A stretch of DNA of 33,233 nt from contig CAYJCC010000001.1 of NCBI GenBank assembly GCA_964368655.1, forward strand, positions 1 through 33,233, written 5' to 3'. Shown piece by piece: positions 195-24,200 of this stretch. Position 1 is the stretch's first letter. Every line of letters starts with the position of its first letter. The position numbers and the translations under genes were made by a program. The notes below the pieces were generated by a model. The model did not search any database. It was not told the origin of the DNA and worked only from the letters and a program-made list of their open reading frames with translations. The DNA comes from an uncultured Lachnospiraceae bacterium. GTDB lineage: Bacteria; Bacillota; Clostridia; Christensenellales; UBA1242.

Positions 195-269
195 ATGGTT
201 GGAATTAAGAAGAATTTGTTAGTCATTTGTATGGTTCTGTTAAGTGCCTGTCTTTTACTTGCTGGTTGT
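195..269 (+). other. Lipoprotein signal peptide with lipobox L-A-G-C. The lipidated Cys25 codon is at 267-269.
   Basis: The n-region carries KK, the h-region is LLVICMVLLSACLL, and the lipobox LAG|C is followed by GD. This is the pattern of signal peptidase II substrates. Confidence 0.8.
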
Positions 270-3200
270 GGAGACCCATACAAAAACGCAAAGTTTAGTG
301 TGAATACAAATAACATCTTTATTGAATTGGTCGGCGACGCTGAACAAACTTTTAGCATCGTTGCAAATGTTTCGGGATTAAAAAAGAAAGCAGATAAAAC
401 TGCAGGGTATACAATCGAAGATCCTAATGGATATAACGCAATCAATTTTGACGAATCTACAACAAATGATGGAAAGACAACATTCAAATTTTCAACAAGA
501 GGAAAAGAGGGTAGAGTTACATTAAAAGTTTATTCAAATGAAGCTCAATCTAAGTTAAGTCAAAGTGTTGAGATTGTTATTGTTAAGAAAGTTACATCTT
601 TGGCAATGAAAGACAATCTTGCAGTTGAAAGAGGAACATCTATTGATATTTTACAAAACTTGACATTTGCACCAAATGATACCTCTCAAAAAGATATCAC
701 AGTTGAGTTCACAAATGTTGAGCAGTCTCAACTTCAAAATCTTACATATGAAAACGGAAAGGTTACAGTAAATAGAAACTTTGTAGGAAATTCTTTTGGA
801 ATTAAAGTTACAAGTATTTCTAATCCTGAATGTGTAGAGGAAGAGATTGTTTCAGTTATTGATATGTTAGACGTTGATTCTTTGGTTGCTATTAAGAGCA
901 GTGATTCAACAGATGCAGTTATAAATACAGAAGACCAAATGGCTGGACAATACAGTGTTTCACTCGCAAAGAATGTTACCGATTACAACAGCGTTCAAGT
1001 TATGATAAAACAAAAGGTTGGAGATGCTTTCTTAAATCTTGACCCAGAAAAATATTCAGTTAACATAAAGGGTTTGCAAAGCAACAACTTCTTTGCTCCA
1101 GAATATGCAAACAACGTAGTTAGTGCATCTAGAGTTCTCACCAGCAGTGGAGAGGAGTCGGGGGCTTTCTTGCTTAAAGCACAGGCAACGGCACAAGCAC
1201 TTCAACAGACATACACTTTGACATTCACGGTGGACCTTGTTGGTTACGAAGGAATGTTTACAAGAGAAATTTCTTTGACGGTTAAAGTTGTTTCATATCC
1301 TAACGATATTAAAATCTATGATTCATTTGGAACACAACTTTCAGAAGTGTCTATGTTCTCTCAATATTTTGGAGACATGATAAACACTGGAACACAGATA
1401 AAAGCTGTTGTTAGAAATGGTGAGGGCGAAGAATCTAGAAATTATGCTTACAAGTTAAGTATGCAAAGAGAAAGTGCTGGAGTTTGGACAAATGTTGAAT
1501 ATTCAGCATGGCCATTAAATGTTACATACAAAGAAGGTGGAGTAGTTACAGACAATGCAGTAATTTCTAGCAGCCAAGTATTGTATTTAACAAAGAAAGC
1601 AAGTGATGCTACAAATTCCAAATATAGACTTGTGTTTACGAACACTTTATATCCAGATACAAAAACTGAAATGCCAATAACATTCAAAGATGATTCTGGA
1701 ACAAACTTTACGAACACAACAATGGCATTGCCTATTGGTTCAACTAGAGTATTAACTGAAATCAACTCACAAAAAGTAAATTATGAAATTTTGAGTGGTG
1801 CTGAATATGTAACTATTACAGAAAGCACTAACACTTCAAAATATTCTATTAGAGCAGGAAGTTTGTTCGGTACTGCTAGAATAAGATTTGTTGCAGAGAA
1901 CGGAAGAACTGGAATATACACAGTAAACGTGTACGACGAAATGAGAGATGTTCAAGTATCCGTTGGTGGACAGACAATTTCCATAATTGCAGATGGTACA
2001 AATAATTTAACAAACACAATCGTTCCAGTTATAAATGTCACAACAGGAACATCTTTGGCTATTAACTATACTATCAATGGGATTGATTATCAAACAGCAA
2101 TTCCAAGCAGTCTTACAGCGAACGGGGTAGTTGTAGACCCAACAATTGCTATCTTTGGACAAACTCTTGGAGAAGTTGTTACAAAAACAAAAACAGGGGA
2201 CACTCTTGTTACTATAACATTGTTAGGTTATACCAACACTTATACTTTCAATTTTAGACTCAACGTTATAAACGCTCTTAACTATACAAACTTGAGAACG
2301 GTTGACGGAGAAGGCGAAACAACAATCTATCCTATAAATGCTGGTTTAGGAACAAATACGATATATATTCATCAATATGGGTATAAAACATTGAACTTGT
2401 TGTTAAATCCAACCAATGCAACTGTAAAAGCAGAAGATATAGATTGGCAAATTGTTTATAATAACGACAGTTATAATTTTGTTGAAGACGTTCAAGTAGG
2501 TGGTTCTTATTCAAACTGGACAGCTGAACACGAAACATTCTTCACGAATTCAAAATTATACTATTGCGAAGATATATCGGAAACAGATATCATTTTCTTG
2601 GAAGTAAGTGCAGATGGTAGACAAGCAATTGTTCATACATCTAAGAAAGTTACAGAAGATGAGACAACCTATGTCTTTGACATTGTAGCAAGTATAAGTC
2701 AAAGTTACGTAAATCCAAATGGAAACTTGGTAAACGTTATCAGAGAAAGTAGCGTTAAGGTTACCTTGGGAACAGTCGAGAAAACCTCATCAATTCTTTT
2801 CCAAGGATTACAAATGGTTGCTGATGAAAACAGAATAGTGTTTGACGTCAGAGACATGAATGGGTTTACTCAAAACAACACAAAAACATTTGAGTTTACA
2901 GTAGGCAATGATTTTGCATTAAATAAAGACTTGAAAGTTTCTGTATGGACAGAGACTGGAAACATGTTTGACACAACTGGTACAGTTTCTGCAAACATAA
3001 CAAATCGTGCCGATGGAACAGGAACTCTTGCTGTAACAGTTGAAGGCAATCCAAACAGAATCCTCGTTCTTCGAGTAGAATCTGAAGATGGTGGTTGCTG
3101 TTTTGATATCGTTCTTAAAATAGCAGACGGACTCACAGAAGAGACAGCTTTTGAAATCAAGACTGTTTCAGACCTTATCAGAATAAACCAAGCACTTAAT

Positions 3201-6200
3201 GCTTATTATGTGTTGACAAGTGACTTGAATATAAATGACTACGTTTCTAGAAACGGGTTGGCATCATGGACTCCAATCGGAACTGAAGAAGAACCTTTTG
3301 TTGGTAACTTCAATGGACAACAGACAGTTTCTGGAGAAAATTTGCAGTATACAATATACGGATTGAAACTTGCAGGGAGCATGGCTACTGCAGGACTTTT
3401 TGGTGTTATCGGAGAGGCTGGTACTGTTCAGAATGTTGTTTTACAAGACAGTCGAATAAATGTCAATACAGAAGGACAAACATCAGCATATATCGGAACA
3501 TTGGCTGGAAAGAACTATGGTACAATCGTAAATTGTAGCGTAAACGATGGAAACAATGCAGAAGCTGTTACAACAACAAGTTATGGAATGACTGTTGTGA
3601 ACACTAACGCAGGACTTATAGACTTATACGTTGGTGGAGTAATTGGTTACGCAAACGGGACCGTAACAAATGTAAGCGCTGTTTCTTCTATTAAAGTTAC
3701 AAACTCAAATGAAGCAACCAACGTATATGTTGGTGGTTTTGTTGGTCAAAACGGTGGAACAATCATTAATGATGAAACGAGTGGTGCAGCAATTGGTTTA
3801 GGTAACACACAAGTTGTTTGTTATATTGAAACAGTTGGGGCTGATGCAGTGGGTGGTGTTGCTGGAACAAACATTGGCGACATAATAGATACAAATGTTC
3901 AAGCATATATCAAAGCTGATGGAAACAACATTGGTGGTATTACTGGAAGCAATACTGGTTCAATTAGAAACATTACAGTTGTTCCAACTTTAATGGGCGT
4001 GGACAATGTTGGTGGTATTATTGGATACAACAATGGTGGACAGGTAATATCAAGTAAAGTTGAGTTTATAGACTATTTACAAAATTTAAGCCATTTGAAT
4101 ACTGGCATACACGGTCGTGACAATATCGGTGGAATTATAGGATATGTTGAAAACATAGGAAATTCATCACAGTATAACTCCGTTTATAGTTATTATGTAA
4201 GAGATATTTCAGAAGAAGCATATTCAGACACAGACAACACTGGCTTGTATTATGGAGACATTATAGGTAGAAATCATATCGGTGGTCTCTATGGATTTAT
4301 TAAAAATGGAACATTAAGCACTTGTGGAGTTGTAGCAAACATTTCTGGTGTAAATTATGTTGGAGGATTTGTTGGAGCAGCTGAATCCAACTTTAATATA
4401 GAGAATTCTAGCGCATACGGAAACATGACAGCAAGTGCAGAAAACGCATTTGTAGGTGTTTACGTTGGTGCAAAACAAGACATAATCGAAGAAAATGGCG
4501 TAGAAAACATACAATATAGTACGTACGTTGGTGCAATAGGCGAAGAAATTGTTGTTAACTCATATAGTTTTATCTTCTACATTAACGATGAAGACGATAA
4601 AATATATTGGGCAACTGGTACAACATTACCTCAAGAGTTGATAACAGATGGTGCAACGGCTAATAATTTAGAAGCAATTGAGATTTTCTTGCAAAATAAA
4701 TATGCGTTTGTTCCAGTTGTAGGAAGCGATGCTGACAAATTACAAGCAGTAATTGCTTTCTTATCAAATAATTCAAATACAATATCAAACAATATAAATA
4801 AATATCCTGTAAATACATTGCAAGGAGTTGTTAACTATATCAACTCATTTGATAATGTTTTAACAGGTACGTATACAACAGATGCTGAAAGACTTGCAGC
4901 CATCAATGATTTTGCAAATGTAAATTATAATGACGAAGTATTCCAAAGTGCTGTTGAATATGTGTTTGGCCATGACCTTATAGGCGATGGTATTTTGGCA
5001 AACAAATTTATTCCTCTACTTGTAACATATTTTAACAATATTGATGCAACTGCAGTAGTGGGAACATCTACAAATGCTGAAAAATTAACAGCAATGGAAA
5101 CCTTCTTAAACACAAAGACAACAGAAGCACACAATGCTGAAGCAAATGCAAACGAAGGTGTTTCAAATATTGCTGTGTTCAATCCTGTTTGGGCTAATTC
5201 TACAGCAATGAACAGAGTTGTAGATATTACAAACTTCTTATTAAACAATCCTTATCTTGGAAACTCAATTGTTCCAACTCTCATCGCTGCAGAAATTTCT
5301 TATTTGAGAGAGTATGATACAACAGCATTGACAGGAACATATGCGAATGACAATGAAAGATTACTTGCAATAGACGATTATTTGGCAAGAACAATGACTG
5401 GAAGAGATATTGACTATAACGGTTTTGCTTATAGCCAAAGATTTTCCGTTGTTTCAAGTTATGTAAGAAATAACTTTACATCTGAAGAATCAGAGCCTAT
5501 TGAAGAGTTTGCAGATATCGATGCCATTATTGCCTTGATTAAAGAGGTTGATAACACAGCATTGACAGGAATATATACAACCGACAATGAAAAAATAACA
5601 GCAGTAGAAAACTATTTAACGGGAACAACAAACTTTTCTTATGCTGAAAGATTCTCTGCAGTAGAAGAATATGTTAAAACACACAATTTAGGATTTTATA
5701 CATGGAACGGGTTGACCGGAGAAGATAGTTTATACACAGAAGCTATCGTTAACGCAGATGGCACATATTATGTAAGGAACGCAGAAACTGGGGAGTATTC
5801 TGCAACTATTGTTTCTGTAAGTTTTGCAAACATAGACGCAATAATTACATTTATAAAAACGGCAAATCCAAATGTTTTAACTGGCACATACACAACTGAT
5901 GAAGAAAAACTAGATGCAGTTGAAAGTTACCTTGCTATATATTACACAGAAAGACCATTCACGGCATATACTTTTACTAGTTATTCATATATAAATATGG
6001 CAATAACAGGACTTAACTACTTAGCTAATTTCGGCTATATAGATGGCCCAACATACGCATATGCAATTGAAGACTTGTCACAATATGTTGCATTCATTCA
6101 GAAAAACGTTGAACCAACAGCATTGCAAGGGTTAACCACAGATGCTCAAAGACTTGCAGCAATAACTGACTATTTGGAAGAAAATACTGATTATGAAAGA

Positions 6201-9200
6201 CCAGCTGCAATTAACTTAACAACTTTAGAGGAAGTTGTTGAGTTCCTTAACGAAAATCCATTAAGTGCAAGAACAATAATGGTAACATTGACAGACGTTG
6301 ACAGTGTATTTAATTACTTGAAAGAGCAGTTGGGTGCAACGTTCACAATGAACGCCTTTTTGACAAACATATATCAATTTAACGAGTTGATAGGAAATGC
6401 CAATACCGGATTAAACGACGTGGCTCCTAGCAACACAGATATTTGGTATGTTAGCGTAAACGTTAGCGACGGATATCCAATGTTGTTGTCACAAGAACCA
6501 GTTAAGGACGGAAAAATTTCTGTTATCGCAAACTTGCCTCCAGTAGATGCAACAATTCAACTTGTAGCAGATGGAGAAAGAATATTCGATTCTAACTACG
6601 TTGAAACAACCGGAACCATAGAAGATCTTGTTGTAATTTTCTTCCCTAGAGAAAATTCTATAGCAGTTCCAAGCAATATGATTGCAGAAGTAAACAACTT
6701 CTTCAATAAAGTAAACACATATGATGCAAGCGATATTATTTCTATTGCAACAGTTCCAGGATTTGCAGGGGACTCAAAGTTTACTATCACAAGTAGCAAC
6801 AATTCAATAATAAGTTATTCATCATTAAACAATACATTATCAGTAAAGGGCGAAGGGACAGTCACTCTTACTATTTCCAGTCTATATAATCGTTCATTGG
6901 CAAAAACAATAACAATCAAGGTTGTAAGAGGTATCACAGACTTCGAGTTGTATAAAGAAGTAATGAACGAAGAAAACCTTCTCAATGTCGCTGAAGGACA
7001 AAACAAAGTAGAAAACGCAAAAACAATCGATATCCAAAAGGAAAAATCAAAAACAGTATTCCCATTTGCAGATATTGATGCCGATAAAGTATACGAGTTT
7101 ATATCAAATACAGATTTAAGTGAAGAATTAAAGAATAATATTCATATTGGTCAAAATTCTTCAATCGGGGTTAGATACTATTTGTTAGCCGGTGGCTCAA
7201 TTTATAGCACAAGCGAAATATCTAACAACACAATTACAATTTCTGGACAAAGTTTTGTTAGTCAAGAAATATCTACCGGAAGATGGATTTCATATTTAGA
7301 CTTTGATGAAATTTCAGGAAATCAAATCAGAGGAACAAATGCCGGAATTGCTAACATTCTTGCAGTGCCTTATATAAAATTAAATGACAATTCAAAAATT
7401 GTGTTAGAAAAATACAATATTTTGAACGTGGAACACGGAGACTTTGGTGTGTACTTTAATACCAACGTTTATCTTGGCACAAATTCAGTTACTGTTTCTG
7501 ACTCGGCAAAAACGTTCAAGCCACAAGCTTCAGTTGTTTTTGACGTAATTATCGAGACAGACAAGAATGCAGAAAAATTATACATTAACATAAACGGTGT
7601 TCAAACAGAGATTGGAAATACTGTTATTAAATACGACGATAGCTTAAACATACAATTAGAAACAACACCTCTTTATGTAGCTGGAACATCTCCAACGATG
7701 GGAACAAAAACATATACAATTAGACTTGACGTTCCAGAAAATGGAAGATGGTTTGCTGAAGACAAGAACTACACACTTGAGTTCTATACAATAAATGAAA
7801 CAAATGAGAAGAAATCCGACTCTATCGATATCACAATAAACCCTCAAAGCGTGGAAGACGTTAATATTGCTCATTATCCAAACGCAGAATTTAAGCAATC
7901 TGCCGATGGCACGGTTTGGGAAGCAGGTGACGAGAGTGAAGTTGCTTATGACAACATTATCCCATCTCATATTGGTTTATTGAAAGCAAATATTTATCCA
8001 TACTATGCTAACCTAGATGAAATACAGATATCTAGCAACAGCACAGCACTTTCATTCAACCAAGTATTTGGCGAAAAGACTATTGTGACAAATTCAGAAG
8101 TTGAAGAAGGGTTTATTGTTAAAAAATACAGGTTATTATCTAACACGAGCGAAGATTTAACGACTTTATCTTTGAGACCAAGGTCATACTTTAGCACTAT
8201 AGGTGAAAACTCTATCGACCAAGACAAAAATTACTTTGATGGAAACTTGTATATCACAACATTGTTAAGTCCAGATGCTCAAGAAGGTTCAACTATCACT
8301 ATTACTCTTACAGGGTATTTGAAAGGTGAAACTAAGTTTGTAAAGAGCATTGACTTAACGGTAATCAAATTGCCAACAGTAGTGTTTGACTACGAGGGGA
8401 AAGGAGCCATATCAACTCCAGTTGCAAGAGGACTAGATTTCTCATTTACAGCAACTCTTTCTAACGCTGATACATTAAGTTTAACTGATAGTTATTACGC
8501 AGATAGTGTAGATGGAACACCCCTTGTATCTGGATTAAATAACGCATATTATACAATAACCGAGAGTGGTAACGGCTATTCTGTTTCAGTTCTTCCAAGA
8601 GCAGAGCAGGGCAAATACATTGTAATAGTCGGAAAAGTAACAAAGACAATCAATAACGTTGAATATTCAGGAGAGGCAAGAATTGTACTCAAAGTTGCCG
8701 ATTATGTAATCAACAGTATTTCTGTTGAAAATGCAACAGACGGGTACTTGGTAGGATTGTTCGGACAGGCATACAAGTTGAAAGTTGTAATCAACGCTAC
8801 ATATAGCGAAGTTGTTGCAAACTGGAGTTCATCAACCATATATTCGGATATCCAACGTTTGGAACAAGAACTTTCCATGAGTGGAATTGGAGAAAATAAT
8901 CCATACGTTCCAACATGGTATTTGACAAACACAACAGCAACAGGAACAACATATCAAAGTATAAACGAAGGATTATACGAAGCTGCTGGATTTAGAATCA
9001 GAACAGTAGCAGGGTTCTATGATAGAGTTGTTGCCGGAGTAAATGAAAGACTTACCAATACAGGTTTTGCCTTAACTGGCACAGACTTTAATAGTCAAGC
9101 AGTATTGAGAGCTATAGCGCATATTACTTACGGAGAAAATGGTGCAGAGGTATGTACAGACATTCTTTATACCGATGAATTCGTAGAACTTACTGCAGAT

Positions 9201-12200
9201 TTTGGTTTGGGATTCTATCGTGACAGCACAGAAGATAATCCAAATCCTATTTATACAAAAGAAGAACTTATAGCTTTAGGAAATGCTTCAGACACAACTA
9301 TAAAGGGTGCCTACATTTTACAATCCGATATCGAACTTGATGATTGGGAGCCATTGCTATTAAGTGAGGCTGTAACAAGTCTTGATGGTAACGGGTATGT
9401 AGTATCATTGAAGAACTTTAACTTGCCAGAGAACACGTCTAACGAGGTTCCAACGGCTAGTGGGAACATTGGTGTGTTCCAAAAGATACATTCTGGAATG
9501 ACATTGAAGAATTTTGTGGTTGAGATTCGTCCAAATGCAGATATCAATATTATTAATGAATCAAAGACAACTAGTGACGAGTTCAACACAATAAACCCAG
9601 ATTTAACTGTAAATCTTACGAATTATGCAACCGTTAATTACGGAACTATAGCCGGAATAAATGAAGGTATAATGACAAACTGTCAAGTTGTTTATAATGC
9701 AAATAACATTAGAAGCATGAGAGACACCTTGTTACTTGCCGAAAATGTTGGGACTGTTCCAAGTGGAAACATTATGCAAGACGGTAGAACTTTGGATATA
9801 TCTAAATACAAAGATTCTGGAGTTTCATATAACTATACCAGTGGAGAATGGACAGGTGGAAAAAGAGATTTATCTACTGTAAAATTCGAAACATACGATA
9901 TTAAAACTAGTCTTTCAATGACTATTGGTGGTTTAGTTGCCGTAAACAGTGGATTCGTTACTAACTCTAGCGTAGAAAACATTTCATTAATAACACAATA
10001 CGGTGAACTTGCAGGACTTATCGCTCACCAATCAAACAAGCTTAGTTCATCATACTATAAAGGTGGAAACATTATCAACGTTTCTACATCTTCTGTTGCA
10101 GGAAATATTGCTGCAGGGTTAGTTGTTAGAAACTCTGGAGATATCCAATATAGTTATTCTTATGGTAGAGATACTTATTCTTATAATAAAGAGCAAGATG
10201 CTTATTCAGAAACTGAAGAGTCTGACGCAAACAAGAAAGGGATCACTTCTGGTTCATTTGCTGGACAACAAGACAACAACCCAAATGGCCCAGAAACAGA
10301 AATGAAATATCTCCGAGCATTAAGCTCAAAAGTTTATGCAGGTGTTTATAGTGCCGGATTTGTTTATGAAAACACCGGATATATTTCAAACTCCTATAGC
10401 AACATATTGGTTGACGGAGCAAACACTTCTGGATTCGTATTCAGAAATGGTTCGGCTGAAGCTACAGCAGAAGAAAATGCTGATGTTGTAATATCAGACT
10501 GTTATAGTTTGTCTAGTGTACAAACAAACAGTTTATTAGCATCTCCATTTACAGGAAGAGATAGTTCTGGAAACATACTATCTTATTCTGGAGCAACTAT
10601 TGAATATTGTTATTTCTTGTTTGTAAGAATAAACGATACTGATGCTGAACCAGAACGTTTGAAAGACCAAATAAATAGAGAAAACGAATTGGCTACCCCA
10701 TTGGGAATTTCACAGTTCGGCGAATACAATACTTTTGCCGGATTCTATTTCAACTCCGACTTTAAAACAAATTCAGACATTACAAGAAGTGTTTGGTTTA
10801 TTCCAAAAAGCAACGAGGAGAGTGAGGCGTTATATTCTGGTGTATATGACCAGAGTTTCAAATCTTCATTCTATGGCTTAAACAGACCAGAATTAGTTGC
10901 AGCAAACTTAAAAACATTTAGTCTAAGAGTTATCAACACTTCATTATATACAGTAAATGAACTTGCAAACTATTTGAATACAAATTGGTATTCAAACTTT
11001 GATTTTGTCGATTACTCAAGTTCAAGTAGCAACGATGCAAATCCTAACGTTCAAACAATGGCACAATTTATTCAATTAACAGAAATAATTGGATTTATTA
11101 ACGACCAAGAGTCTGTAAGTGCTAGAAAAATTAATATCACAACAACTGCTTCAGATAGTGCAAAGATTTCTGCAATAGTAAATTACTTAAACAACAATGC
11201 TCAGATTTATCCTGTGACAACATCAGATGTTCCTCTTAGCATAAATAATATAATTCATGCAATCAAGAACAATCCACAAGCATTTAATGGACAAGTTTTG
11301 AACACTCTTGAAGGTTCAGTATTTACAATAAACAATCTTGCAACCTATCTTGAAAGACAAAAATCATCAACATTATCTTATTATTATACCGGTACAGTTA
11401 TCGGTGAAGATATTTCAAACCCAATATTGATTGACTCTGCAGAAAAGTTCAATGCTTATGTAAGCACTGAAAATCTTGGCGTAACTGGGGCTTCTATGCT
11501 CGATAACGCATATATAAGATTTGTTCAAAATATTGAGTACAACAAAGACGGAGACTTAAACGCTGATACATATACAGTTGATTTCAGGGGAGACCTTGAT
11601 GGTAACGGTATGACAATAAGCCAGTTGAGACTTGTTGCAGATAGTGATTATGTGGTTGAAGTTGGTCAAGAAGTAAATAACCTTGGTTTATTTGCAACCA
11701 TTTCAAGTGCATACCAAAACGGAAAAACACAATATGGTAGCGTAAGAAACCTTAACATAGAGGTTGTTTCTGTTGACGGTGTTGGTGTTGAATGTGTTGG
11801 TGTTCTTGCCGGAACTATTGACGGTGGTAAAGTTGCAAACATAAACATAACATCTTATGGAGAAAACCAAGTACTTGTAACAGGTAAGAACTTGGCAGGT
11901 GGTGTCGCTGGATACGTTAAGGGCGATGCTGAATTGGTAAATATCCAAAGCACATTGTCTGTAATGGTAGATTACAAAAATAATGTAAATAATTTCCCAG
12001 ACGCAATCTATGAATTGGGACCAACAACTGACAAAACTTTCTTTATCTATGACAACCGTTTATCATCTCCTAATCTATCTAAGTTGTCATACGCTGGTGG
12101 AATTGCCGGAATTATTGATACTCAAGAAAGAGTAAGCAACGTAGGAAGTTCTAGCAGCCTTTACAATAGTAGAGTAAGAAGAGTTACCGTTTCTTCAGAT

Positions 12201-15200
12201 GCAGTATTATCTGGAGAAATCGTTGGTGGATTATTTGGATTGATTGGAGAATCAACACAAGTTTCAGACGTTTCTTTAATTATAACAGGAACACCACATT
12301 TGAATGCTATCAGAGCAGCAGGTGGTATTGCCGGTGAAAACAGAGGAAAAATTGAACGTGCAACAGTTGTTCATTCTGAAGAGACTCAAGCAGAAATAGA
12401 CCAACTTATTTCTCAAAATGCACAAGTTTCAACAATACATGACAAAACATACAACACGTTATTTACAAGAAATGCTAACTTTATCGGTGGATTGGTTGGT
12501 ATGAATTTTGCTGGAGAAATAACAAACTCATATAACTTGGTGAGCGTAGAAAACCCTAGAGCAGCTTATGCTGGTGGCTTGATTGGTTTGGATATCAGTG
12601 GAACTATAACCTCTGTATATACAACTGCATCAGTTAAAGCTTATCGTTCATATGGTGGTATCACAGGTAAAGAAGTTTCATATAACGCAGTCCTTTTAGT
12701 TGACATGGCAAGAAATCGTTTATCAACAAACATACAAAATGTTGATTATTTGAATGAGTTAGTAAAGAATAGTGACCAAGTTATCTATAAAGGTGTAAAC
12801 GGCATAAACCTTTGGACAGCCGAAGATTTAACAACTTTTAACAGATATAATGGACAAGACTACAACTATGCCGATGTAGGTTCGTTTATTGGAACATTGA
12901 TAGTAAAGGATACCATTGACATTCGTTGTGCAAACTCTGTTGAAATAGATACCCGTTTAAGAAACGAGTATAACTATTTCATGACAGCAAATTATCTAGA
13001 TAGCGCAAAAGCAGGGCAATTATTGCTCCAAGTTGGAAACCTTGCACTTTCAGATTTGATAACTGAAGAAGGTTCAGGTAATTTTGCTTCCAATACACAA
13101 GAATTGGAAGCAAAAATCTCGGAAGTGGAAGGCGCCGCCAGCAAGCCATACATTCAAAGTGGAAACTATATGTATGAGAATTCTGAAGGAAAGACTACAT
13201 ATTATCATGTTTCTAGACTCCAAAAATATGGTTCATTGAGAACTTTATCTGAATTTGTAAGCATGACCCTTGATGTTACTAAAGCAAGACAGACCTCAAA
13301 CGAATTTAATACAGAAACATTGGAATATGAACTTACAAATGAAGATAAATACTTTACGATGATAGATGTAATCAACAATTATATCTTGACCGATAGTGAT
13401 AAATACGAGTTGCTGGGACAATCAACCAATGAGACAATACTTTTATATTCTTATATGAATTCAAATCACACAAAGATTATGACTTCTTTAAGCGAAAATG
13501 AAAATCGCACAAGGTTAGTAGACTATTGTGAAAAGGTTATTATTACTGGTAACACGGTTACAATAGAAACATCGCTAACAGGCATGAGAACAGAATTGCA
13601 ACGAGTTGTTACATATCTTTCCGATGCCTTTACTGGAAACGAGTCAACATTTGCTGAACTTGTTCAAGTGATTAATTCTTATGAACCAACTAGTCAAAAT
13701 TTAATAGACACAAGACTGACTGAAGATGAATTGAAAGCGAGAATAAAAGCGTTTATGGATGCCGATACGAAGAACACCTTTGTAGATGGAACTGATGATG
13801 AAAATTGGAATGCTCCTGGAGTTGTAGAGTCATTAGTTACATACATAAATAACAACTATTCTTTGGAAGCAGGACAACAAATTCCTCAAAGAGCAAATGC
13901 CAAATCGCCAAAAATATTTACAACTTACAATCCAATGTTGTGGCATGGTGTAACATTTAGAGAAGATGGAACAAAAGAGTTCACGGAAGTAGCTCTTCCA
14001 AAACTTGAACCAAAAGCAGACTTGGGTGTAATTACCGTAACAACAGTTGAAGAATTGTTGTTGATTGAAACATATAGATTTAGCAAATTTATAATTGCTG
14101 CCGATATTGACCTGTCCACATACGATGGGGATTGGTTGCCTTTGTGTAGCGAAGATTTTCCATTCCAAGGAACAATTGAGGGCGCTGAAAGAAAAACGGA
14201 AGGTGACCAACCAGTTACTGGTTCTTATTATGGAATATATAATATAAGCATAATAGGAAAAACAAACAAATTAGGATTACTGTCCTATGTTGAAAATGCA
14301 ACATTCAAGAATTTAACTCTTGGTGTAATTAAAGTTGATAATGCAGGTTATAACGGAGAGTCTGGACCAGCTTATGTTGGTGCATTGTTTGCATACTCAA
14401 ACAACACTCAAAATCAAATAACAATCGTCGATAATGTTCATGTTATCTCAAACGATGGCTATATTGATAAAGTTTTGGAAAATGCTACAAGCATGAAGAC
14501 AGCTGCTGAAGAAGAACTTGAAATAAACTTGGCTATCAAAAATGGAAATAGTAGTTATAAAATATCTGCAACATATACTGGGGCAGTAGGTTCTTTATTT
14601 GGTTATGCAAATGGCGTTCAATTAAAGAATGTATCAGTTGGACTAGATGGAAACAACGATTATTCTGGTGTAGTAGAAGCTAGAAGTGTGTATGCAGGAG
14701 CAACTGACACAGTTACTGCTGGTGCTATTGCTGGTAAGATTGTATCTCGTGAGAGCAGAATAAGTGTAAGAAAGAATTTTGCTTCATTGGAAGAAGCTAG
14801 GAATACGTATAAGATAGAAGACTATCTTGCATATACAGTGAATGGTGCTGATAACAACAACACAAGATTAAATATAAAACAGTCCGTTAGTGATGGTGAA
14901 GAAAAAGAAAGTCTAAGCCTTGTTCTTGCTTTTGGTGGATTGTTTGGAGAGATTGAAGACGGACTTGGTGGTGGAACAGCAGTAAATATCAAGAACATAA
15001 AGGTTAATAACCCAGGTGTTACTTCTGACACTATTCGACTAACCATGGACTACAATGCTGGAGAGATATATGTTGGTGGTGCAATAGGAAGAACAGTTGG
15101 TGCTGTTAACATAAACAGTAATGAATACATAACTGAAGAAAGAACCAACATGTTGGCTCTTGGAAACAGTTTATCATTCGAAGATGATAGTACCGATGCA

Positions 15201-18200
15201 AATTCTCCTAACTTAACATTGACAGAAAAGAACGCATATACAATGCAGTTACTTGCTAGAAATGTTGAAGGGTATGCAGTTGCTAACAATTCAATAATAA
15301 GATTAAAATTAGACAACAATAATTCAAGATTATTTGTTGGAGGTTTTGTTGGTTCACATAGTGGAACTTCAAGCCTAAATAGTTCATTCAACAATATTGA
15401 CTTAACCGGAGAAACAAAAATAATCTTGTCTGGTGCAAATACTCCAGCAAAAACACTCGATGAAAAAGTTGATTACAATGTTTACTTTGGTGGAGCAGTT
15501 GGTTATTTACAACAAAACGCTTCAGATATAGATTTGAAATCGGGATCATTTGATATTTCTAAAGAAGATACCTATGAAGGGTTGTTCCTCGGAGGAATTG
15601 CCGGATACATGACCAACTCTGTAATGTCTGACGTTGCAGCTAAAATAAGCTTGGTAGTTCCAAATAATTTAAGTTTCAGCGAGAAATATCTCGGAGGAAT
15701 CGCCGGGTATTCTTATAATAGTAGCTTTGATATGGTTGCCAGTGATGGTAATATAGAATATCTGGGAGAAGACGAAGCCGAAATAGGTGGATTAGTTGGT
15801 AAATTTGTCGCTAAGTCACTAGGTGGAGCGTTTACTATCTCAAGAGTGTTCTCAAATATGAACATCAAGAGTAATGGAACAGGAAACTTTGGTGGATTGA
15901 TTGGAATTCTCCTTGCTGGTGACCACTCAGAGGGCGAAATTAACATTTCTGATAGTTATTCAGCTGGTAGTGTTTGGGCTGCTGCTGATGCCATAGAAGG
16001 CGTTTCAGTAGGTGGGTTCATAGGTTCTGCTAACTTTAAGCAAACAAGTGATAGTGCTTCATGTAAAGGCTTACTAGAAGTTAAAAATAGTTATAGTATT
16101 GCTAATGTTGTTACGGCAACAACTGAAACCAATAAAGCAACTTACTTAAACGAAAATGATGGTTCATACGGAGCATTCGTTGGAAGTATAAGAACAGACG
16201 ATGTAGATGGGGCATTCTATAATGTTTATTATAATGCCGATCTTGCACCACGTTCTGCAGAGATACCAGGAATAACTGGTCTTTCTACTAAAAATATGTT
16301 GTTTGAGTCTCTCGGAACATTTAACGGATATTTAGATACAGAGATTTGGACGCTCGTAAGTGGTGCTTATCCAGTATTAAAATATGCACTTGACGTGAAT
16401 AGTTTCGCTGGCGCTTATGCGAGTCAAACATTGACAGCTCAAGAAAACAAACAATCTATATTCCAACAGGCTGAAACAAATCAAATTCCTGTTGCGAATG
16501 CAGAAGAAACCGAAAACAGCATTGCAGTGATTTATTCTTCTGGACAACTTTCGGAAGTAGGTAACAAAACAATTTATATTGTCGCAGGAAGCACTATTAC
16601 ATACGGAACTATTGCGACTGTTGATACTTTAGGAAGATTGTGGGGAGTGGACGGAACAAACGTTTCAATCACAACCAACAACGGTATTATATCAAACACA
16701 AACTTGACCTTGAATAACAACGATAAAAACTTTGTTGGTACCAATAATGGTATCATTCAAAATACAAAAGTAAATGAAAATCATCTAAACTTAACAACTG
16801 TTGCCAACACAAATAGGTTAGCAAAGCCTATTGTTGGAACAAACAATGGTATAATTGATAAATTAAGCGTTGTTGGATACGTAAAAGCTGACCTTGCTAC
16901 AATATTTGTGGAAGGAACCAATGCTGGCATGATCATTGATTCTGTTGCTAGAACAGACCACCCAACAGCAAAACTTACAACAAATAGTGGGGCTGAGGAA
17001 GCTGGTTCTGGTAACGATTATATCAGAAACAGTTTGTTATATAACGAAAATGGTTTTGTTTATTATGGAAACACTACAAATGGACATGTACTCTCATTCC
17101 CTCTAACTGCTTTCAGCACAGATGTTGAAATTGACCCTAACAGCGACCAATTCGGAGTGTTAACAGGGGAAGAGACTATCGAAGAGTTTATGAGAGCCTT
17201 TGATATCACAAACTATACTGGATGGGCAACCAGCCAAGGCTTTGACTTTGACCAAATTTGGACAATGATAGAGCCTCAAGATGAAAGTGGATATAAGAAC
17301 TTAATTGAAGAAATTCAAGACTTGAAGAGCGAATATGTTGCATTAGCCGACGGTTACAAAGCCGTTCAAGCAAGAATAGCAGAGTTGAAGGGCACAGGAA
17401 GAATAACTACCACGGTTTATGCAAGAATAGCACCTACTTCTGTTGGTGGAGCTGCCACAAACAACTCCTCAATCTCAGCAGCAGTGTACACAAATGGAGC
17501 AATTTATGCAGCGCAAAACACGATGACAAATGCTCGTGCAAAATATGAAGAAGCAAAGAACACATATGATAATATGGTGAGACCTGCTGGTCTTACAGAC
17601 GAAGCTTGGGCAGAAAAGAAAGCCATCGCTGCTACAAATGTAACAAGAGAATGGAACAACTATTTGTCCACAATAGATTCATATAATAACCTGATAGTAG
17701 AATATAGAGCAAGAATTTTGACTGCCGAGGGTGAAAATGAGGATCCAAGAAGTTTGGGTTATGCATTGTTCTTGGTAAAAGAAAAAGCGACTGAAATTGG
17801 TAGAAAAGATGCAAGTTTCGGAGCAAAAGTTGTTAAAGATATAACTAATTCGGGTGCACCAACTCTTCAATGGACACTTAAAGATTATTGGACAAACGAA
17901 AATTTATCTACACAGTATGAATGGAAATTAAACGCTGAAGCTCAAAGTGGAACATTGGCAGGCAATCTTAATTCTATATATGGGGCATCAGGTTCAGATG
18001 GTTTAATAAATGTTATAAACGGAAATGCAACAATCAGTGCTGTATTTGGTGAGAATGTTGTTGGTTCGACGGTTAATGATTTGAAAACTGCAATAGAAAA
18101 CTCTGGAGATACTCTATTTGCAGGAACTGTTGAAAGACTAACAAACGCAGATACTTTAATAAAGATAAAAGCATGGCTTTCAAACAAAGTAATAACTAGA

Positions 18201-21200
18201 GACACTTCTAAACTTATAGAGATTGGTAGAGCAGAAGAACTTGCTTGGGTATCTAATTTGAACAGGGCAGGAGTTGAGTTTAGAGGGGTAACCTTAGAAC
18301 TTACAGCTGACATTGACCTTGGTGGCAAATTATGGCAGCCAATAGGAAATGGATACGACAACGGACAAACAAGATTAGAGGGAGATGTAACTCCATTCTA
18401 TGGTTATATAAACGGAAATTGGCATACAATTAAAAATATTTCAGTATTTGCAAGTGATTCAAATGCTGGATTGTTTGGCACTGTTGTTAATTATGGAACC
18501 ACACCTTTTGCAAAAGAATTGTATATGGAAGGTGGATTCGTTATCAGTGTTAACTCATTAGATGCTATAAATATTGACAATAGTCCATTTGCAAACGCAG
18601 GATCTCTCGTTGGCCATTTAGAAAAGACAAGTAATAGCACTATACTTTCTAAAGTTGTAGTAAAGAATGTAGCTGTAACAGCTACACATAACGCTGGTGG
18701 TATTATTGGAACAACCGTAGGTTCAGCAATCATTGAATATTCATATACAAAAGATATGGTAATTAAGGGTGCAGGCGCTATTGCGAATGTTGAGGGAACT
18801 TCGTCTGTTCTTTCGGGTATTACTAACGTTTCTGGAACAATACTGGCAAATCAAGTTTATTCAAAAAATAGTTACAACATAGGAAGTGCTGGAGTAAGAG
18901 TATATCCAATTACAAACAATACTTTAGCAGCAACTTCTGCAGCATATTATGAAGCATTGCTTCGCGAAACTTCTGCAGCTGGGGCTATAGAAAAAAGTAA
19001 AGAACAAATGGTTTCTGAATCATGGGGAAATTTCTCATGGGCAGATATTTGGTACAGAGATACTAACGGAGAAATAAACGAAGGATATCCAGAACTTTAT
19101 GTATACGAAAATTCAGACTACTGGTACGCTTATGTTCAGAATACTCAAACATCTCTAAATACAAACGGTAGGGTAGATTATTCTGTAAATGGGGATGTCT
19201 ACACAGTATTTACTGGTGCTGGACTTGCATACATGAGCTACTTGGTAGCAAATGGAGATGATTTCTCTGGAAAGACAATAACGCTTGGTAATGATATTTC
19301 ATTGAGTGGAAGATTCTGGACTCCAATAGGTACAACAACAAATCCATTCAAGGGCACTTTTGATGGAAACTTCAAGAGCGTCTTTGGCTTAACTTGTTAC
19401 AGTGTGTTCGTTGGGGATACAGAAACAGCAGCTACATTAAACCTCGGATTGTTCGGATATGTTCAAGATGCAACAATCAGAAATGTAACGGTTGGTGTTC
19501 CAAGCGATGATGAAAATTATGAAACAAAAGTTAGCACAATTGGTGGCGTTTCAAACATTGGTGGTATCATAGGACAAGCAGTACGTTCTACTATTTCAAA
19601 CGTAGTTTCATATACAGTGATTAACACAACAGAAGGACAAACTGGCGAAAATATCGGTGGTATTGTTGGTTTTGCTACAAACTCTAAATTGATAGAGTGT
19701 ACAAACTATGGTGCAATCACAGGTTTAACTACAACTAACGTAGGTGGTATTGTTGGACGAATGACATACGATTCAACAACAGGTGGAACATTTATGCCAA
19801 CAGGAACCTTAAGTGGAGAAAGGATAGAAAGCCTTCTCGGAAACTTAAACTCTTCTAAGTTGGTTAATAACGCAGTTATCCGTAGCAACGGTAGTTATGT
19901 TGGTGGTATTTTTGGACAAATTTCAAATGCAAACCAATTTACTGTTACTGGAACATACAACGGGATAACATATACAAATGAAGTATTTACTCCAAGCGTT
20001 AGTGAGTCATATAACACAGGAATAGTTTCGTCATCAGACAGTTATGTTGGTGGTATTTCTGGATATTCTCAAAGAACAAGTTACACATTGGTTTATAATA
20101 TAGCGAATGTAACTGGCTCAACCAATGTTGGTGGTATTTTGGGATACACCACAGGAAGTGGTTCTTTAGCAAAAGACATTTACATTGACAACAGCATGCT
20201 CGTTGAGGCGGGAAGTGCAAAACCATCAAGTACGGGTACGATAAAGGGACAAAACTATATTGGTGGAGTTGTGGGATATTCTGATACTACGACAATTATG
20301 GGTGTTACTAACTGTAGTCCTATTATTAGGGTATCAGGGGCTTCGCAGGATAGTTATTTTGGTGGTATTGTTGGTTATGCAAACAATTCTAACTTATATG
20401 AAGTAGCAAACAAAGTGGAGCTTACTGTTGGCGCAGGATATGTAGGAGGTATCGCATGTTATGTAGGAGGTATCGCAGGTTATGCTTCATTTGACAACTC
20501 TTCAGAAGCTATCAACTTATATGACACATCGACTCAATATTCAGAAGCAGGTAGCCTTCATATATTCCCAGATAAAGACCCACTTATAGCAAGGTATAGT
20601 GGTACAGCAAATAGAGTTTCAAGTGCTGTATATGGTGGAGCAACTCAAAGTAGAGTTTCAAATATAAACAATTCAATTGTTTCTGCTGCGAATGCTGAGA
20701 CAAATACAATCTTTACTAACTCAAGTGTTTGGGTAAACGGAGTATTAAAATATGCAAGAACCGTAGAAATCTTGCCAAATAAAACAAATAGTAGTGTAAC
20801 AATTAACACTGCAGATGAATTTTACATGATTGCTTATATGATGGCTATGAGATTGAATAGACCAATCGTAACAGAAATTACGCTTGGAGCAGATATTGTC
20901 CTTGATTTGTCTGCAACAAATTATGTACGAAATCTGGAATCTGGTAAAATTAGCCCACATGCTTCTAACTTGCTTGGAACAGGAGATAATTATAAATTCA
21001 AAGGAACATTTAATGGTAATAATAAGACCATAACTCTTTCTAGGACTTCTGAAGAAACATTTTCTGAAGAAATATTTAGTAATATGTATACTGGATTGTT
21101 CGGATGTGTTCAAAACGGACAAATAAGCAACTTAACCATTTCTTTAGCAGGCAATATAGTAGGGTTCAATTATACTGGAGCTCTTGCTGGAATCGTTCAA

Positions 21201-24200
21201 AATGGTAATATTTCAAATGTGACAGTTCTAAGCGGAGGGTCTTCAATAATTGGGAACCAATATGTTGGTGGTATTATTGGAAGAGCAGAAGGTTCAACGA
21301 TAAGCCTTAACACTGCTGGAGTAACGAATAAAACAGCAGTAAATTGCAATGTTCAAGGTGTAATTAATATAGGTGGTATTGTAGGATATGTAGTCAATAC
21401 AAAAATTTATGGCACGGGTTCAGCCCTTGCAACAAACATGGATACAAATGCTATAGTTGGAGGCAATATAACATTTGTAAACACTGGTTCAACCTTTGAT
21501 TCTATTGGTGGAGCCATTGGTTCTGCTAATAGTTCTGAAATATATAATATAAGTAGTACTTCTACGGTTGGAGATGGGACTTTAGGCGCAAATGTCGGTG
21601 GAATTGTTGGAATAAGCAATGATTCTCCAATTAGTTATTGTAAAAATGAAGGAACGGCTAAAGGACGCTCATATGTTGGTGGAATAACAGGACAGGCTGC
21701 TTATGGTTCTATTAACAATTGTGAAAACAGTGCAGGTATCCAAGGTAATTCGTACATAGGTGGAATTGCTGGTATTTCAAGCGGTAACATTGCAAATTGT
21801 ACTAATTCGGGAAAGATTACTGCCTCAATTTTGTCTGACGCAAAAGGTGCTGGTGGAATAGTTGGTGTATTGACGGCACAAAAAGTAGAACAATGTATAA
21901 ATAATGGTATAGTCAACAGTCTTTCTTCAGAGTATGTCGGAGGAATTGTTGGACGTGTTTATAGTCATGCTTCAATATCTGAAAGCGTAAATAATGCAAG
22001 AATTACGGGATTAAGATATGTTGGTGGTATAGTAGGTGGAGTTTATATTGATAGTCAAATATCCATAAATGAATCTGACAATAAAGGACAAATAGTGGGT
22101 AACGGAATAGTTGGTGGAATAATCGGTTATGCAAGGTCAGGGGCAAGTATAACTAACTGTGAAAATCAATCTTCAGCAATAGGAGAAAATGATTCTATTG
22201 GTGGAATTGTTGGACAAATAGATAGTGGAACGATTGAAAATTGTGCAAATAATGCCGCAATACAAGCTAATTACGCGGCCGGTGGAATAGTTGGAAATAG
22301 TAATGGTGGAAGTAGTTCCTTAAACGTTGTAATCACAAATCCAGGATTGGGAATATGGTCTTTTGTGAAGGGAAATTATTATGTTGGTGGAATTGCTGGT
22401 TATGCACAATACACTCAAATAAGGTTCACTTCAAATACTGTTCTAAACGTTGGAACAATAGAAGCTACAAACACTCAAGGGCAGAATGGAGGTTCCTTTG
22501 GCGGGTTGATAGGTAGAGGACAGTTTTGTGAAATTTATGGACAACATATATCTGATACTAATAAATTTGCAACTACAAATACTGGAAATACCCAGGTTAC
22601 GGCAACAATAAAGAGTAAGGATTCATATGCGGGTGGCATTATTGGAAGACTTGAGGGTGGAAAAATATACAATATAACACTTGCATACGGTATCGTGGGG
22701 GAGTCGTCAAAAGTAGACTATGTCGGCGGAATCGCAGGGCATAGCACAGGTGAAATTTTATACTGTTCAAATGCTAATACGTCTGAAATATACGGTCGCA
22801 ATTATGTTGGTGGCATTGCAGGAAGGTCTTCGGGGACGATAACCGATTGTTATAACACTGGCTTGGTTTCAGCAAGTGAGAGTTACGTTGGAGGTATTGC
22901 TGGTCAAGCTTATGGAACAATTCAGTTCGCGGGAGGCAGAAATACTTCTGGAATAGTTAGTGGGTTATCAAATGTTGGTGGAGTTGTTGGAGTTGTTTCC
23001 GATGGAAAATTAACAGTATACGGAACAATGGAATTCACAACTTCCAATAGCACATCTAAAACCTTATTTAGCGGGACACTTTCAAAATCTTCTAAGTTGG
23101 GTGGAATTATAGGATTGGTTGATGATTATTCTTACAACTCAGTTTATATATATAACATGATAAACAATAGTACAATTGCAGGAAGTGAAGCCGTAGGGGG
23201 TATTGTTGGGAATGCTCTTGGTGGTGGAGGAGAAATAAAATACTGTATTAACTATCAATCAATTACTGGCTCATCAAATGTCGGTGGAATTGCTGGAAAT
23301 GTTTTGGCTAAAAGTGGCAGTTATGTTATAGATGAATGCCATAACTATGTGGGTGCCCCAATAAAGAATGGCTCTAATGTCGGCGGAATAGTGGGGAATT
23401 TCAACAGAGGTACAATTTCAAACTGTGAAAATGTGGCGATAATAAGTGGTACATTTAATGTTGGTGGAATCGCTGGAAATAACGTTTCAACAATATACGG
23501 TTGTACCAACAATGGTGAGATAACAGGAACCTACTCCGTTGGTGGAATCGCTGGAACAAATAGTGGGTCTATCGGATCAAATGGAAATTCTTGTACTAAT
23601 TCAGGAAAGATTACTGCCTCAACTTCGTCTAACAAAAAAGGTTCTGGTGGAATTGTTGGAACAAACAGTGGAACCGTACAGTATTGTACGTCAGAAGAAG
23701 ATATTTCTGGGAAAACAAACACAGGTGGAATAGTTGGTTATTCTTCTTCGGGTAGCATTATTAGTAATTGTAAGACTCTTAGTGTAACGATAGAAGGAAC
23801 ATCAAACAATATTGGTGGAATAGTTGGGAGCAATTATTATGGAACAGTTTCTGAAAGTACTAGTTCATATGTAACGATAAAAGGATCGTACAACATTGGA
23901 GGCATTGCGGGTGCGTCGTATGGTACTATTGAAAATTGTTCTCTTGAAAAAGGAAGCTCGGTGACAGGATCGTCACACTCTGTTGGTGGCGTAGTTGGCT
24001 ATTTGTCTGGAACCACGGTTTCAGGATGTTTGGTTTATTCTTATTATCATGAAAAGAGAGTTGGACTTGGGTTTTGGGACTATCAAACACATGACGATCG
24101 AACATATATAACAGGACCCACGGATGTGGGTGGAATAGCCGGATATTCTTCAAGCTCAACGATAACAAATTCTTTTGTTGATTCCTATTCTTATAAGGAT

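Follow-up and report, generated by a model that had tools for sequence, protein, structure and literature searches.

The first GLUG-type beta-helix module of a giant cell-surface protein (8,374 aa) from an uncultured gut bacterium of the Clostridia (Christensenellales-like) has, in its C-terminal tail, an array of about 600 residues: six clear repeat units, preceded by a partial one and followed by a degenerate tail. The array shows a hierarchy of repeats that are old, judged by their synonymous sites, and it defines a sequence family for which the protein and contig collections searched yielded no relative. Our tentative best reading is that it consists of lineage-specific tandem repeats of alpha-helical units that would form a helical-bundle rod or an adhesive segment, a structural role being the most likely. 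In uncultured gut anaerobes, attachment to host mucus, dietary particles, or other microbes probably depends in large part on giant surface proteins, which to our knowledge are almost entirely unannotated.

Host protein and array location

The host gene occupies positions 195–25319 of the window, the 33,233-nucleotide stretch of DNA analysed here, as a single uninterrupted ORF (ORF list and translation); this gene and all features described below lie on the + strand. The protein contains at least seven GLUG-type beta-helix modules, with matches to the Pfam Glug profile (PF07581) confined to its C-terminal half. Its N-terminus, MVGIKKNLLVICMVLLSACLLLAGC, reads as a lipoprotein-type signal peptide with the lipobox L22-A23-G24-C25 (found by eye in the translation), in agreement with the bacterial lipoprotein pattern [LVI][ASTVI][GAS]C. 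On this reading, the protein is N-terminally lipid-anchored at the cell surface. An Rfam scan of the window returned zero RNA families.

The region under study (nt 4560–6437) corresponds to aa 1456–2081 of the host ORF. The helical array starts immediately after the first half of the module-1 C-terminal tail motif, SYSFIFYINDEDDKIYWATGTTLPQELITDG (aa 1456–1486, nt 4560–4652), and is followed by the second half, or end-cap, TDIWYVSVNVSDGYPML (aa 2081–2097, nt 6435–6485), which carries the motif [DE]IW[YT]...[GA]YP-x-L. The whole protein has just three copies of this motif (aa 2082, 5383, and 6284), the latter two directly after beta-helix modules. When aa 1490–2073 were removed, the module-1 tail, including its first half, was colinear with the tails of modules 4 and 5, and the three modules shared the pattern [FY]Y...TG[LT][ST]...DIW...GYP-x-L. 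The preliminary description had placed the array inside module 1, and this insertion is supported at the sequence level.

The same description regarded helical repeats within a beta-solenoid module as an unusual arrangement, which was an overstatement. A diverged single three-helix unit follows module 2 (aa 3627–3722, nt 11073–11360); its match to the profile of unit alignment A2 (10.1 bits) spans nearly the full profile length, and none of 300 block-shuffled controls reached this score (maximum 5.9 bits). A possible further diverged copy in module 3 (aa 4419–4495, nt 13449–13679) gave a weak score of 3.9 bits, which was reached by 6 of 300 shuffles. Single copies of the unit thus also end module 2 and perhaps module 3, and rods combining beta-solenoids with alpha-helical repeats are known in other giant Firmicute surface proteins (PMC12863079).

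An assembly or binning artefact that placed foreign DNA within the gene would fit the lack of identical or close sequences in the collections searched. This explanation is extremely improbable, however, as the array is in frame within the uninterrupted 25-kb ORF, the tail motif picks up exactly after it, and the ORF has the array unit again 5 kb, and perhaps also 8 kb, further downstream.

Organization of the repeat units

The five previously described copies of the core motif were found in frame at nt 4827, 5292, 5526, 5841, and 6084 (aa 1545, 1700, 1778, 1883, and 1964), and their alignment gave the pattern [hydrophobic helix]-x-x-LTGTYTTD-x-E-[KR]-L-x-A-[IV]-x-x-[YF]-L. The repeat was confirmed, but not its proposed length of about 31 aa: in alignment A2, the true conserved unit is about 65–105 aa long and has three helices. 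The proposed spacing of 78–155 aa was likewise revised to 64–105 aa, with a sixth copy at aa 1609–1641 (nt 5019–5117), scoring 12.6 bits against an HMM of the other five, filling the 155-aa gap. Each unit runs from helix A (xIDAIIxFIK) through the loop LTGTYTTD to helix B (xEKLxAVxxYL) and helix C (xRFSAVxxYV), and the core pattern Phi-x-A-Phi-x-x-[YF]-Phi is common to all three helices. Conservation across units is strongest in the loop and at the start of helix B. Unit length is variable, and inserts are present.

The array opens with the partial unit U0 (aa 1487–1537, nt 4653–4805), which consists of helix A NNLEAIEIFLQNK, a helix-B-like half-motif SDADKLQAVIAFLSNN, and a terminal N/S-rich linker, and which scored 14.8 bits in leave-one-out profile searches (shuffle maximum 11.3; alignments A1 and A2). 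It is followed by U1 (aa 1538–1603, nt 4806–5003; 39.7 bits), which contains the first of the five original copies with its core from nt 4827, and by U2 (aa 1604–1690, nt 5004–5264; 25.1 bits), which contains the diverged sixth core that had been missed. The second to fifth original copies correspond to U3 (aa 1691–1770, nt 5265–5504; 36.2 bits), the cleanest three-helix unit, U4 (aa 1771–1875, nt 5505–5819; 48.8 bits), U5 (aa 1876–1955, nt 5820–6059; 39.5 bits), and U6 (aa 1956–2030, nt 6060–6284; 32.0 bits). Leave-one-out scores ranged from 25 to 49 bits for U1–U6, with shuffles of these clear units staying under 10, and shuffle maxima for U0–U6 were 7–11. The degenerate helical tail U7 (aa 2031–2080, nt 6285–6434) scored a non-significant 4.3 bits against a shuffle maximum of 15.2; the elementary helix motif matches it once, at aa 2035.

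The half-motifs reported between the copies are real: the region has 15 instances of the 8-mer Phi-x-[A/G/S/T/V]-Phi-x-x-[Y/F/L]-Phi versus 1.2 expected (maximum 6 in 2000 shuffles), with a modal spacing of about 25 aa. A profile built from helix B alone scored 3.4 and 2.1 bits on A/C helices (sum 5.5; shuffle mean 0.1, maximum 6.1), and homology of helices A and C to helix B is weakly supported.

GLUG rungs show a comparable spacing. The rung V-G-G-I-V-G-Y-A and the helix core L-D-A-V-E-S-Y-L share Phi-x-x-Phi-x-x-[YF]-Phi with a period of about 25 aa, and one loose regular expression fits the helix cores and many rungs, as would be expected if the helices were degenerate beta-helix rungs that had changed fold. 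Such a descent is very improbable and was rejected, since the profile of the 15 elementary helices matches no GLUG rung in the protein; Pfam Glug has no match in the region, and the likeness is limited to hydrophobic spacing. The GLUG modules form the host scaffold, with the array in the C-terminal tail of one of them; unlike their rungs, the array is predicted to be helical and is glycine-poor, and neither the Glug nor the helix profile links the two.

Compositional analysis agreed with the earlier view that the region is distinct from the rest of the protein, with less G (4.6 vs 10.6%) and S (5.0 vs 9.5%) and more A (10.6 vs 6.8%), E (7.3 vs 5.4%), and F (5.0 vs 3.1%). G, S, and P are scarce in the array and A, E, L, and F abundant; Tyr, Thr, and Asn are also frequent, and its pI of 4.1 makes it acidic.

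Age of the repeats

Codon comparison between units showed 242 identical codons among 478 identical residues versus 208 expected, and the DNA repeats in the array are short only and 60–92% identical. A 23-nt stretch shared by copies 1 and 5 had been taken as a sign of relatively recent duplication or gene conversion. The stretch exists (nt 4878 and 6138), but as evidence of recency it is borderline, as stretches of this length appeared in 3.5% of simulations in which codons were redrawn from the usage of the gene with amino acids fixed. Recent duplication or gene conversion as a general feature was rejected because synonymous sites are near random and the DNA repeats are short. These comparisons indicate that the duplications are old and that the amino-acid motif has been retained; its preservation despite near-saturated synonymous sites argues for purifying selection on the motif.

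Structure prediction

The proposed helical nature of the region was borne out at moderate confidence, with four helices (pLDDT 66) predicted by AF2 using an alignment of paralogous units that had seven rows only. The unit model showed three helices per 65–105-aa unit and, with a pTM of 0.43, was too uncertain for helix packing to be read from it. In U3, the predicted helices span aa 1694–1707, 1719–1735, and 1746–1761. U4 has an additional insert of about 45 aa (aa ~1830–1875) predicted as a beta-hairpin, with strands in the low-confidence single-sequence model. Single-sequence AF2 of the whole region showed A-B-C helix periodicity throughout, and its pLDDT of 36 makes it uninformative on fold or disorder. 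A Foldseek search of the PDB with the unit model returned nothing at E ≤ 0.001, a weak negative given the moderate confidence of the model.

Two structural observations count against a rod or spacer: the tertiary fold is poorly supported, both for the unit (by pTM) and for the whole region (by pLDDT), and Foldseek found no similar solved structure.

The array might instead be fast-evolving, weakly structured filler with transient helices, its repeats tolerated as neutral insertions into the tail loop and serving no specific function. Its orphan status, the variable length of its units and their inserts, the very low confidence of single-sequence AF2, and the apparent functionality of orthologues without the array would all suit this explanation. 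We consider it quite improbable, as filler would not be expected to conserve an amino-acid motif across units with near-saturated synonymous sites, to keep a regular amphipathic hydrophobic pattern (15 occurrences vs 1.2 expected), to be low in Gly, Ser, and Pro, or to reach a pLDDT of 66 with just seven paralogous rows.

Database searches and distribution among relatives

The array had been described as unclassified, and we found no match in Pfam, NCBIfam, PHROGs, or the PDB and no homologue in large searches. In Pfam, NCBIfam, and PHROGs scans, run with the whole protein as well as with the region, thirds of it, and individual units, matches for the array did not rise above chance level. FIVAR (PF07554) was absent from hmmscan results for the region, its thirds, and each unit at E ≤ 10, and Pfam gave no match at E ≤ 10 to the GA module (PF01468), the protein A B domain (PF02216), or the spectrin repeat (PF00435). 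Dockerin type I, which is characterized by a duplicated calcium-binding loop D-x-N-x-D-G followed by a helix, also had no Pfam match, and the Asp/Asn calcium ligands of that loop are missing from LTGTYTTD, judging by its sequence. Searches of all PDB sequences by phmmer and profile at E ≤ 10 returned only the unrelated chance matches 4ysk, 3brc, and 9n69; the solved Ebh/Embp repeats 6GV8, 6GV5, and 2DGJ were not among them.

Neither the region nor a profile including the module-2 copy had a match in word-indexed searches covering 5.8 billion proteins (profile search at E ≤ 1), exhaustive phmmer against 1.84 billion representatives gave 0 matches at E ≤ 0.001, and scans of genome and metagenome contigs with the region and with the LTGTYTTD pattern gave none. 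The stretch downstream of the array (aa 2081–2900) likewise had no match in a word-indexed search, and close orthologues were thus not retrieved by that route. Six-frame translations of 80 rpoB-anchored loci yielded nothing significant against the unit and core profiles. In the syntenic orthologue L057, about 58 aa stand in place of about 790 aa of the window protein; L062 and L052 likewise leave little space for the array, and L012 has module 3 without the helical part. The array thus appears to be lineage-restricted, with syntenic orthologues in distant relatives leaving no room for it.

Possible function of the array

In the rod reading that we tentatively prefer, each unit would consist of three short amphipathic helices, with the LTGTYTTD turn ending in a T/D-x-x-E helix N-capping box. 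Old, in-place duplications of a unit that is otherwise single at module ends of the host protein would have produced the array, within a loop of the tail motif at the C-terminal end of the first GLUG-type module. The small helical bundles would line up as a semi-rigid rod measuring a few tens of nanometres, which would lengthen the protein and keep the distal beta-helix modules off the cell surface. The repeats, with their hierarchy, position, age, and absence from the collections searched, are observed, and we infer the bundle fold, rod shape, and spacer role.

Among known systems, the F and FG repeats of Ebh (Staphylococcus aureus) and Embp (S. epidermidis) are strings of FIVAR and FIVAR-GA helical bundles (PMC7587433; PDB 6GV8, 6GV5, and 2DGJ). 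Like the array, they are tandem alpha-helical units of about 100 aa in a giant Gram-positive surface protein, with a small set of conserved residues and a shared helix pattern by which units are recognized. The Ebh/Embp repeats form elongated rods and are also able to bind a ligand. The array, however, has no sequence similarity to them and no Pfam FIVAR or GA match; Ebh/Embp units have 125–170 aa and two connected three-helix bundles and occur in 10–50 copies, whereas those of the array have 65–105 aa and three predicted helices in 6–7 copies inside a beta-helix module tail. The Apilactobacillus kunkeei proteins Giant1–3 combine a beta-solenoid with a long rod of parallel alpha-helical repeats, the stiff parallel stacking of which comes from AlphaFold3 models (PMC12863079). 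They resemble the host protein as giant extracellular Firmicute proteins (3,000–8,000 aa) with a beta-solenoid and previously undescribed alpha-helical repeats, and in their fast evolution and lineage restriction. Giant1–3 consist mostly of helical repeats, which follow a single N-terminal solenoid, whereas the array (600 aa) is only a small part of a protein with at least seven beta-helix modules; by sequence, no relative of the array was detected in the protein libraries searched, which may or may not include Giant1–3. The predicted three-helix unit also recalls protein A B-domain, GA-module, and spectrin-type three-helix bundles, which occur in tandem in surface or cytoskeletal proteins, but loop lengths and the conserved motif differ, and PF02216, PF01468, and PF00435 gave no match at E ≤ 10. 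By analogy, the array is best read as functionally comparable to the Ebh/Embp or Giant1–3 repeats while lying outside those families.

The array could alternatively be the adhesive, ligand-binding part of the protein, as the preliminary description suggested it might be, with the LTGTYTTD loop as a binding site in each unit. Six or seven such sites would make attachment multivalent, in the manner of Velcro, and the target could be a polysaccharide, a host glycoprotein, or another microbe. Its models would be the Embp F/FG repeats and the three-helix domains of protein A and GA, and Embp helical-bundle repeats do bind fibronectin (PMC7587433). An adhesive array is possible but doubtful. Its most conserved residues lie in the loop and at the start of helix B and were kept despite near-random synonymous sites, and its acidity (pI 4.1) and richness in Tyr, Thr, and Asn would suit binding; the loop conservation can, however, be explained structurally by the turn and N-capping box, Pfam and PDB searches did not link it to any known binding domain, its position is in the proximal quarter of an N-terminally anchored protein, away from the distal tip, and a ligand cannot be inferred from it. 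A bolder and rather unlikely proposal is a new small helical domain fold whose invariant Thr/Tyr-rich loop is a repeated binding site. The array would then be a new multivalent adhesin module presented from inside a beta-helix C-terminal cap, and it would have arisen within one uncultured gut Clostridia lineage through amplification of a connector that is single at other module ends.

Lineage-specific repeats are common in giant adhesins, and if the array is only a spacer, it is an ordinary result. If its units can fold on their own, the known repertoire of bacterial surface repeats would gain a new small helical domain. The array is a clean example of protein growth, in which a short connector in a beta-helix tail loop would have been amplified in place, and its units could serve to mark the lineage.

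The best-conserved segment of the unit is the LTGTYTTD loop, and conservation is not confined to the hydrophobic core. Conservation of this kind is unnecessary for a pure spacer and would be expected of a repeated binding site too, and in both respects it counts against the rod or spacer.

Giant gene and its neighborhood

The window (GC content 36.7%) carries three genes on its + strand: the giant ORF (195..25319; 8,374 aa), rpoB (25813..29508), and rpoC (29524..33126), the latter two recognized by Pfam. The giant surface-protein gene immediately precedes rpoB-rpoC, in the same orientation. It is separated from rpoB by a 493-nt spacer (25320-25812) with a promoter-like site (25555-25583; 10/12 matches, extended TG) followed by a terminator-like hairpin with a T-run (25607-25633), which together could form a candidate attenuator or leader for rpoBC; an Rfam scan of the window matched no family.

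Translation of the giant ORF revealed an N-terminal lipoprotein-type signal peptide, MVGIKKNLLVICMVLLSACLLLAGC, with the lipobox LAGC, followed by several beta-helix modules with GLUG-like rungs. With an N-terminal lipid anchor, the chain would run outwards from the membrane. Pfam Glug was recognized solely in the C-terminal half of the protein; the N-terminal 4,500 aa (window 195-13694) matched no Pfam or NCBIfam family, and aa 2081-2900 (window 6435-8894) had no homologue in a word-indexed protein search. From its sequence, most of the giant protein is unannotatable.

Anatomy of the repeat array

The array (nt 4560-6437) corresponds in frame to aa 1456-2081 of the giant ORF, between about one fifth and one quarter of the protein length from the N-terminus, and its composition differs from that of the remainder of the protein, as had been proposed. 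All five repeat copies of the preliminary description were found in place (aa 1545, 1700, 1778, 1883, and 1964), but a sixth, which it had missed, was detected at aa 1609-1641 (LVTYFNNIDATAVVGTSTNAEKLTAMETFLNTK; 12.6 bits) with an HMM of the five, and the odd 155-aa spacing between copies thereby disappeared. Alignment of the whole inter-copy segments (A2) revealed that the repeat unit is real but longer than originally described. It consists of helix A (x-I-D-A-I-I-x-F-I-K), a loop (x-x-D-x-T-A-L-T-G-T-Y-T-T-D), helix B (x-E-K-L-x-A-V-x-x-Y-L), a variable loop of 8-25 aa, helix C (x-R-F-S-A-V-x-x-Y-V-x-N-N), and a linker leading into helix A of the following unit. The interspersed "half-motifs" noted earlier correspond to the core segments of helices A and C, together with those of the weaker B helices. 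Within the array, the pattern Phi-x-[AGSTV]-Phi-x-x-[YFL]-Phi occurred 15 times, against a shuffle mean of 1.2 and maximum of 6, with a modal spacing of 24-27 aa. A helix-B-only profile detected helices A and C only weakly, so that a common origin of the three is no more than suggested.

Since A2 profile scores on its own units are high by construction, the fair test was leave-one-out scoring of non-overlapping units. Units U1-U6 scored 25-49 bits (shuffle maxima 7-10), the partial unit U0 scored 14.8 bits (shuffle maximum 11.3), and the tail, U7, scored 4.3 bits, which was not significant. Six units of the array are therefore clear and one is partial, and its tail is degenerate. That this in-frame series was created by an error of assembly is the least probable of the readings considered. 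U4 carries an insert of ~45 aa (window 5682-5819, aa ~1830-1875; HNLGFYTWNGLTGEDSLYTEAIVNADGTYYVRNAETGEYSATIVSV), an insertion within an insertion, which forms a beta-hairpin in a low-confidence AF2 model.

Age of the duplications

The preliminary description had taken a near-identical 23-nt stretch as a sign of relatively recent duplication or gene conversion. The stretch is present, at nt 4878 and 6138; however, a stretch of at least 23 nt with at most one mismatch arose in 3.5% of simulations in which codons were redrawn with the amino-acid sequences fixed. DNA shared between units was confined to short stretches (26-63 nt, 60-92% identity), and TRF reported a single small repeat in the array, a 21-nt tandem repeat of 2.2 copies (window 4762-4806) coding for the Asn/Ser-rich linker SNNSNTISNNINKY between U0 and U1. 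At residues identical between units, the same codon was used in 242 of 478 comparisons, versus 208 expected from the codon usage of the gene, so synonymous sites between units are close to randomized. It follows that the duplications are old and that the motif is held by selection on the protein; recent duplication or conversion is not supported.

Position in the beta-helix module and further copies

Exactly three instances of the motif [DE]IW[YT]...[GA]YP-x-L are present in the giant protein, at aa 2082, 5383, and 6284; the second and third immediately follow beta-helix modules 4 and 5, respectively. When aa 1490-2073 were removed, the tail of module 1 gave a colinear alignment with the tails of these two modules, all three following the pattern ...[FY]Y...TG[LT][ST]...(12-20 aa)...DIW...GYP-x-L. 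At the sequence level, this alignment places the array in a loop of the C-terminal tail of module 1, in agreement with its proposed location inside that module. Derivation of the array from the GLUG rungs is very improbable, as a search across the rungs of the giant protein argues against it.

Searching the rest of the protein with the A2 profile revealed a diverged, near full-length copy just after module 2 (aa 3627-3722; 10.1 bits, a score reached by 0 of 300 block-shuffled controls) and a doubtful one in module 3 (aa 4419-4495; 3.9 bits, reached by 6 of 300 shuffles). From these copies, the unit looks like a connector element, single at module ends and amplified in module 1. A second helical segment (window 17292-17834, aa ~5700-5880; KNLIEEIQDLKSEYVALADGYKAVQARIAELKG...EYRARILTAEGENED) is of another, coiled-coil-like type, stands after the cap-like motif FDFDQIWTMIEPQDESGY, and showed no relation to the LTGTYTTD unit by profile.

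Search for relatives

Pfam searches (E ≤ 10) with the array, its thirds, and each unit returned scattered chance matches, none common to two units, and NCBIfam and PHROGs gave no match to the array. Comparison with PDB sequences by phmmer and profile found nothing significant. Word-indexed searches of 5.8 billion proteins returned no match, either with the array as query or with a profile including the module-2 copy (E ≤ 1), and exhaustive phmmer against 1.84 billion cluster representatives gave zero matches at E ≤ 0.001. GTDB genomes and JGI metagenomes, scanned with back-translated patterns that included LTG[TI]Y[TA][TN]D[NEA], likewise yielded no relative. The designation "unclassified" thus held across the family, structure, protein, and contig collections searched. 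The helical repeat array is real and on firm statistical ground, of old date, and maintained by selection, and it represents a new sequence family, of which the databases searched held no detectable relative. It belongs to an already-known type, the lineage-specific helical repeats of giant Gram-positive-type surface proteins.

Predicted structure and possible role

AF2 modeling of U3 plus the following helix A, for which the other six units supplied the alignment, predicted helices at aa 1694-1707, 1719-1735, 1746-1761, and 1775-1785 (mean pLDDT 66, pTM 0.43); a Foldseek search of this pLDDT-66 model against the PDB found nothing at E ≤ 0.001. A model of the whole array without alignment (pLDDT 36) was uninformative about folding; it displayed A-B-C helix periodicity in every unit and strands in the cap. 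The models lend moderate support to helical units and no real support to any particular helix packing. Helices and periodicity were thus predicted, and not the disorder that the preliminary description had named as refuting its reading; folded helical bundles remain a prediction. That the array is weakly structured filler appears unlikely.

Its most likely role, which we propose tentatively, is that of a semi-rigid extension. The array would make the giant protein longer and increase the spacing of its distal beta-helix modules, with the conserved LTGTYTTD-x-E serving as a turn and helix N-cap. Such a role may be likened to the rods formed by strings of helical bundles in Ebh/Embp (PMC7587433) and to the predicted rods of beta-solenoid and alpha-helical repeats in Apilactobacillus Giant1-3 (PMC12863079). 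The main rival, possible though less probable, holds that the array is a putative multivalent adhesive segment in which the conserved Thr/Tyr-rich loop recurs as a binding site. The sequence data are unable to separate extension from adhesion.

Synteny and distribution among relatives

With one genome per species, the nearest rpoB relatives were 72-75% identical, all of them uncultured gut "Clostridia" or "Christensenella sp." MAGs from goat, human, deer, and other hosts; at this distance, the source represents an unrepresented gut Clostridia lineage near Christensenellales. A look-up of the identical rpoB protein returned no record. Among 80 rpoB-anchored loci from related genomes, 23 (L001, L003, L004, L006-L008, L012, L014, L016, L019, L021, L023, L024, L027, L029, L031-L033, L037, L052, L057, L062, and L068) contained a + strand ORF of >2,700 aa that extended beyond the 5' limit of the locus and stopped ~0.5 kb before rpoB. 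The giant proteins compared from these loci were 22-34% identical to that of the window, with rpoB at 56-75%. These ORFs and their resemblance indicate that the giant gene is syntenic in this gut Clostridia group, apparently combining a conserved position with a very fast-evolving protein.

Three distant loci reached module 1 (L057, L062, and L052; rpoB 56-58% identical). The module-1 beta-helix of L057 (query aa 968-1316) was followed by ~58 aa and then by the domain that follows the cap in the window, where the same interval spans ~790 aa; L062 and L052 similarly had little sequence between the two. L012 (rpoB 72%) was without the helical part of module 3. The loci of closer relatives with rpoB 72-75% identical, such as JAFQTP010000002.1, DJSB01000048.1, and CALWGY010000002.1, covered the final 10 kb of the upstream gene and stop short of module 1; none of the proteins of these relatives was retrieved by the protein searches. 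One reading is that the lineage of the window gained the array; alternatively, the fast-evolving giant protein may have diverged beyond recognition in relatives, a reading that the interval length rules out for the distant relatives alone. One further locus (L046, CAVEBU010000006.1), labeled Alistipes finegoldii, has an rpoB 57% identical to that of the window, as in the listed Clostridia MAGs, and its contig was probably mis-binned or mislabeled in its assembly.
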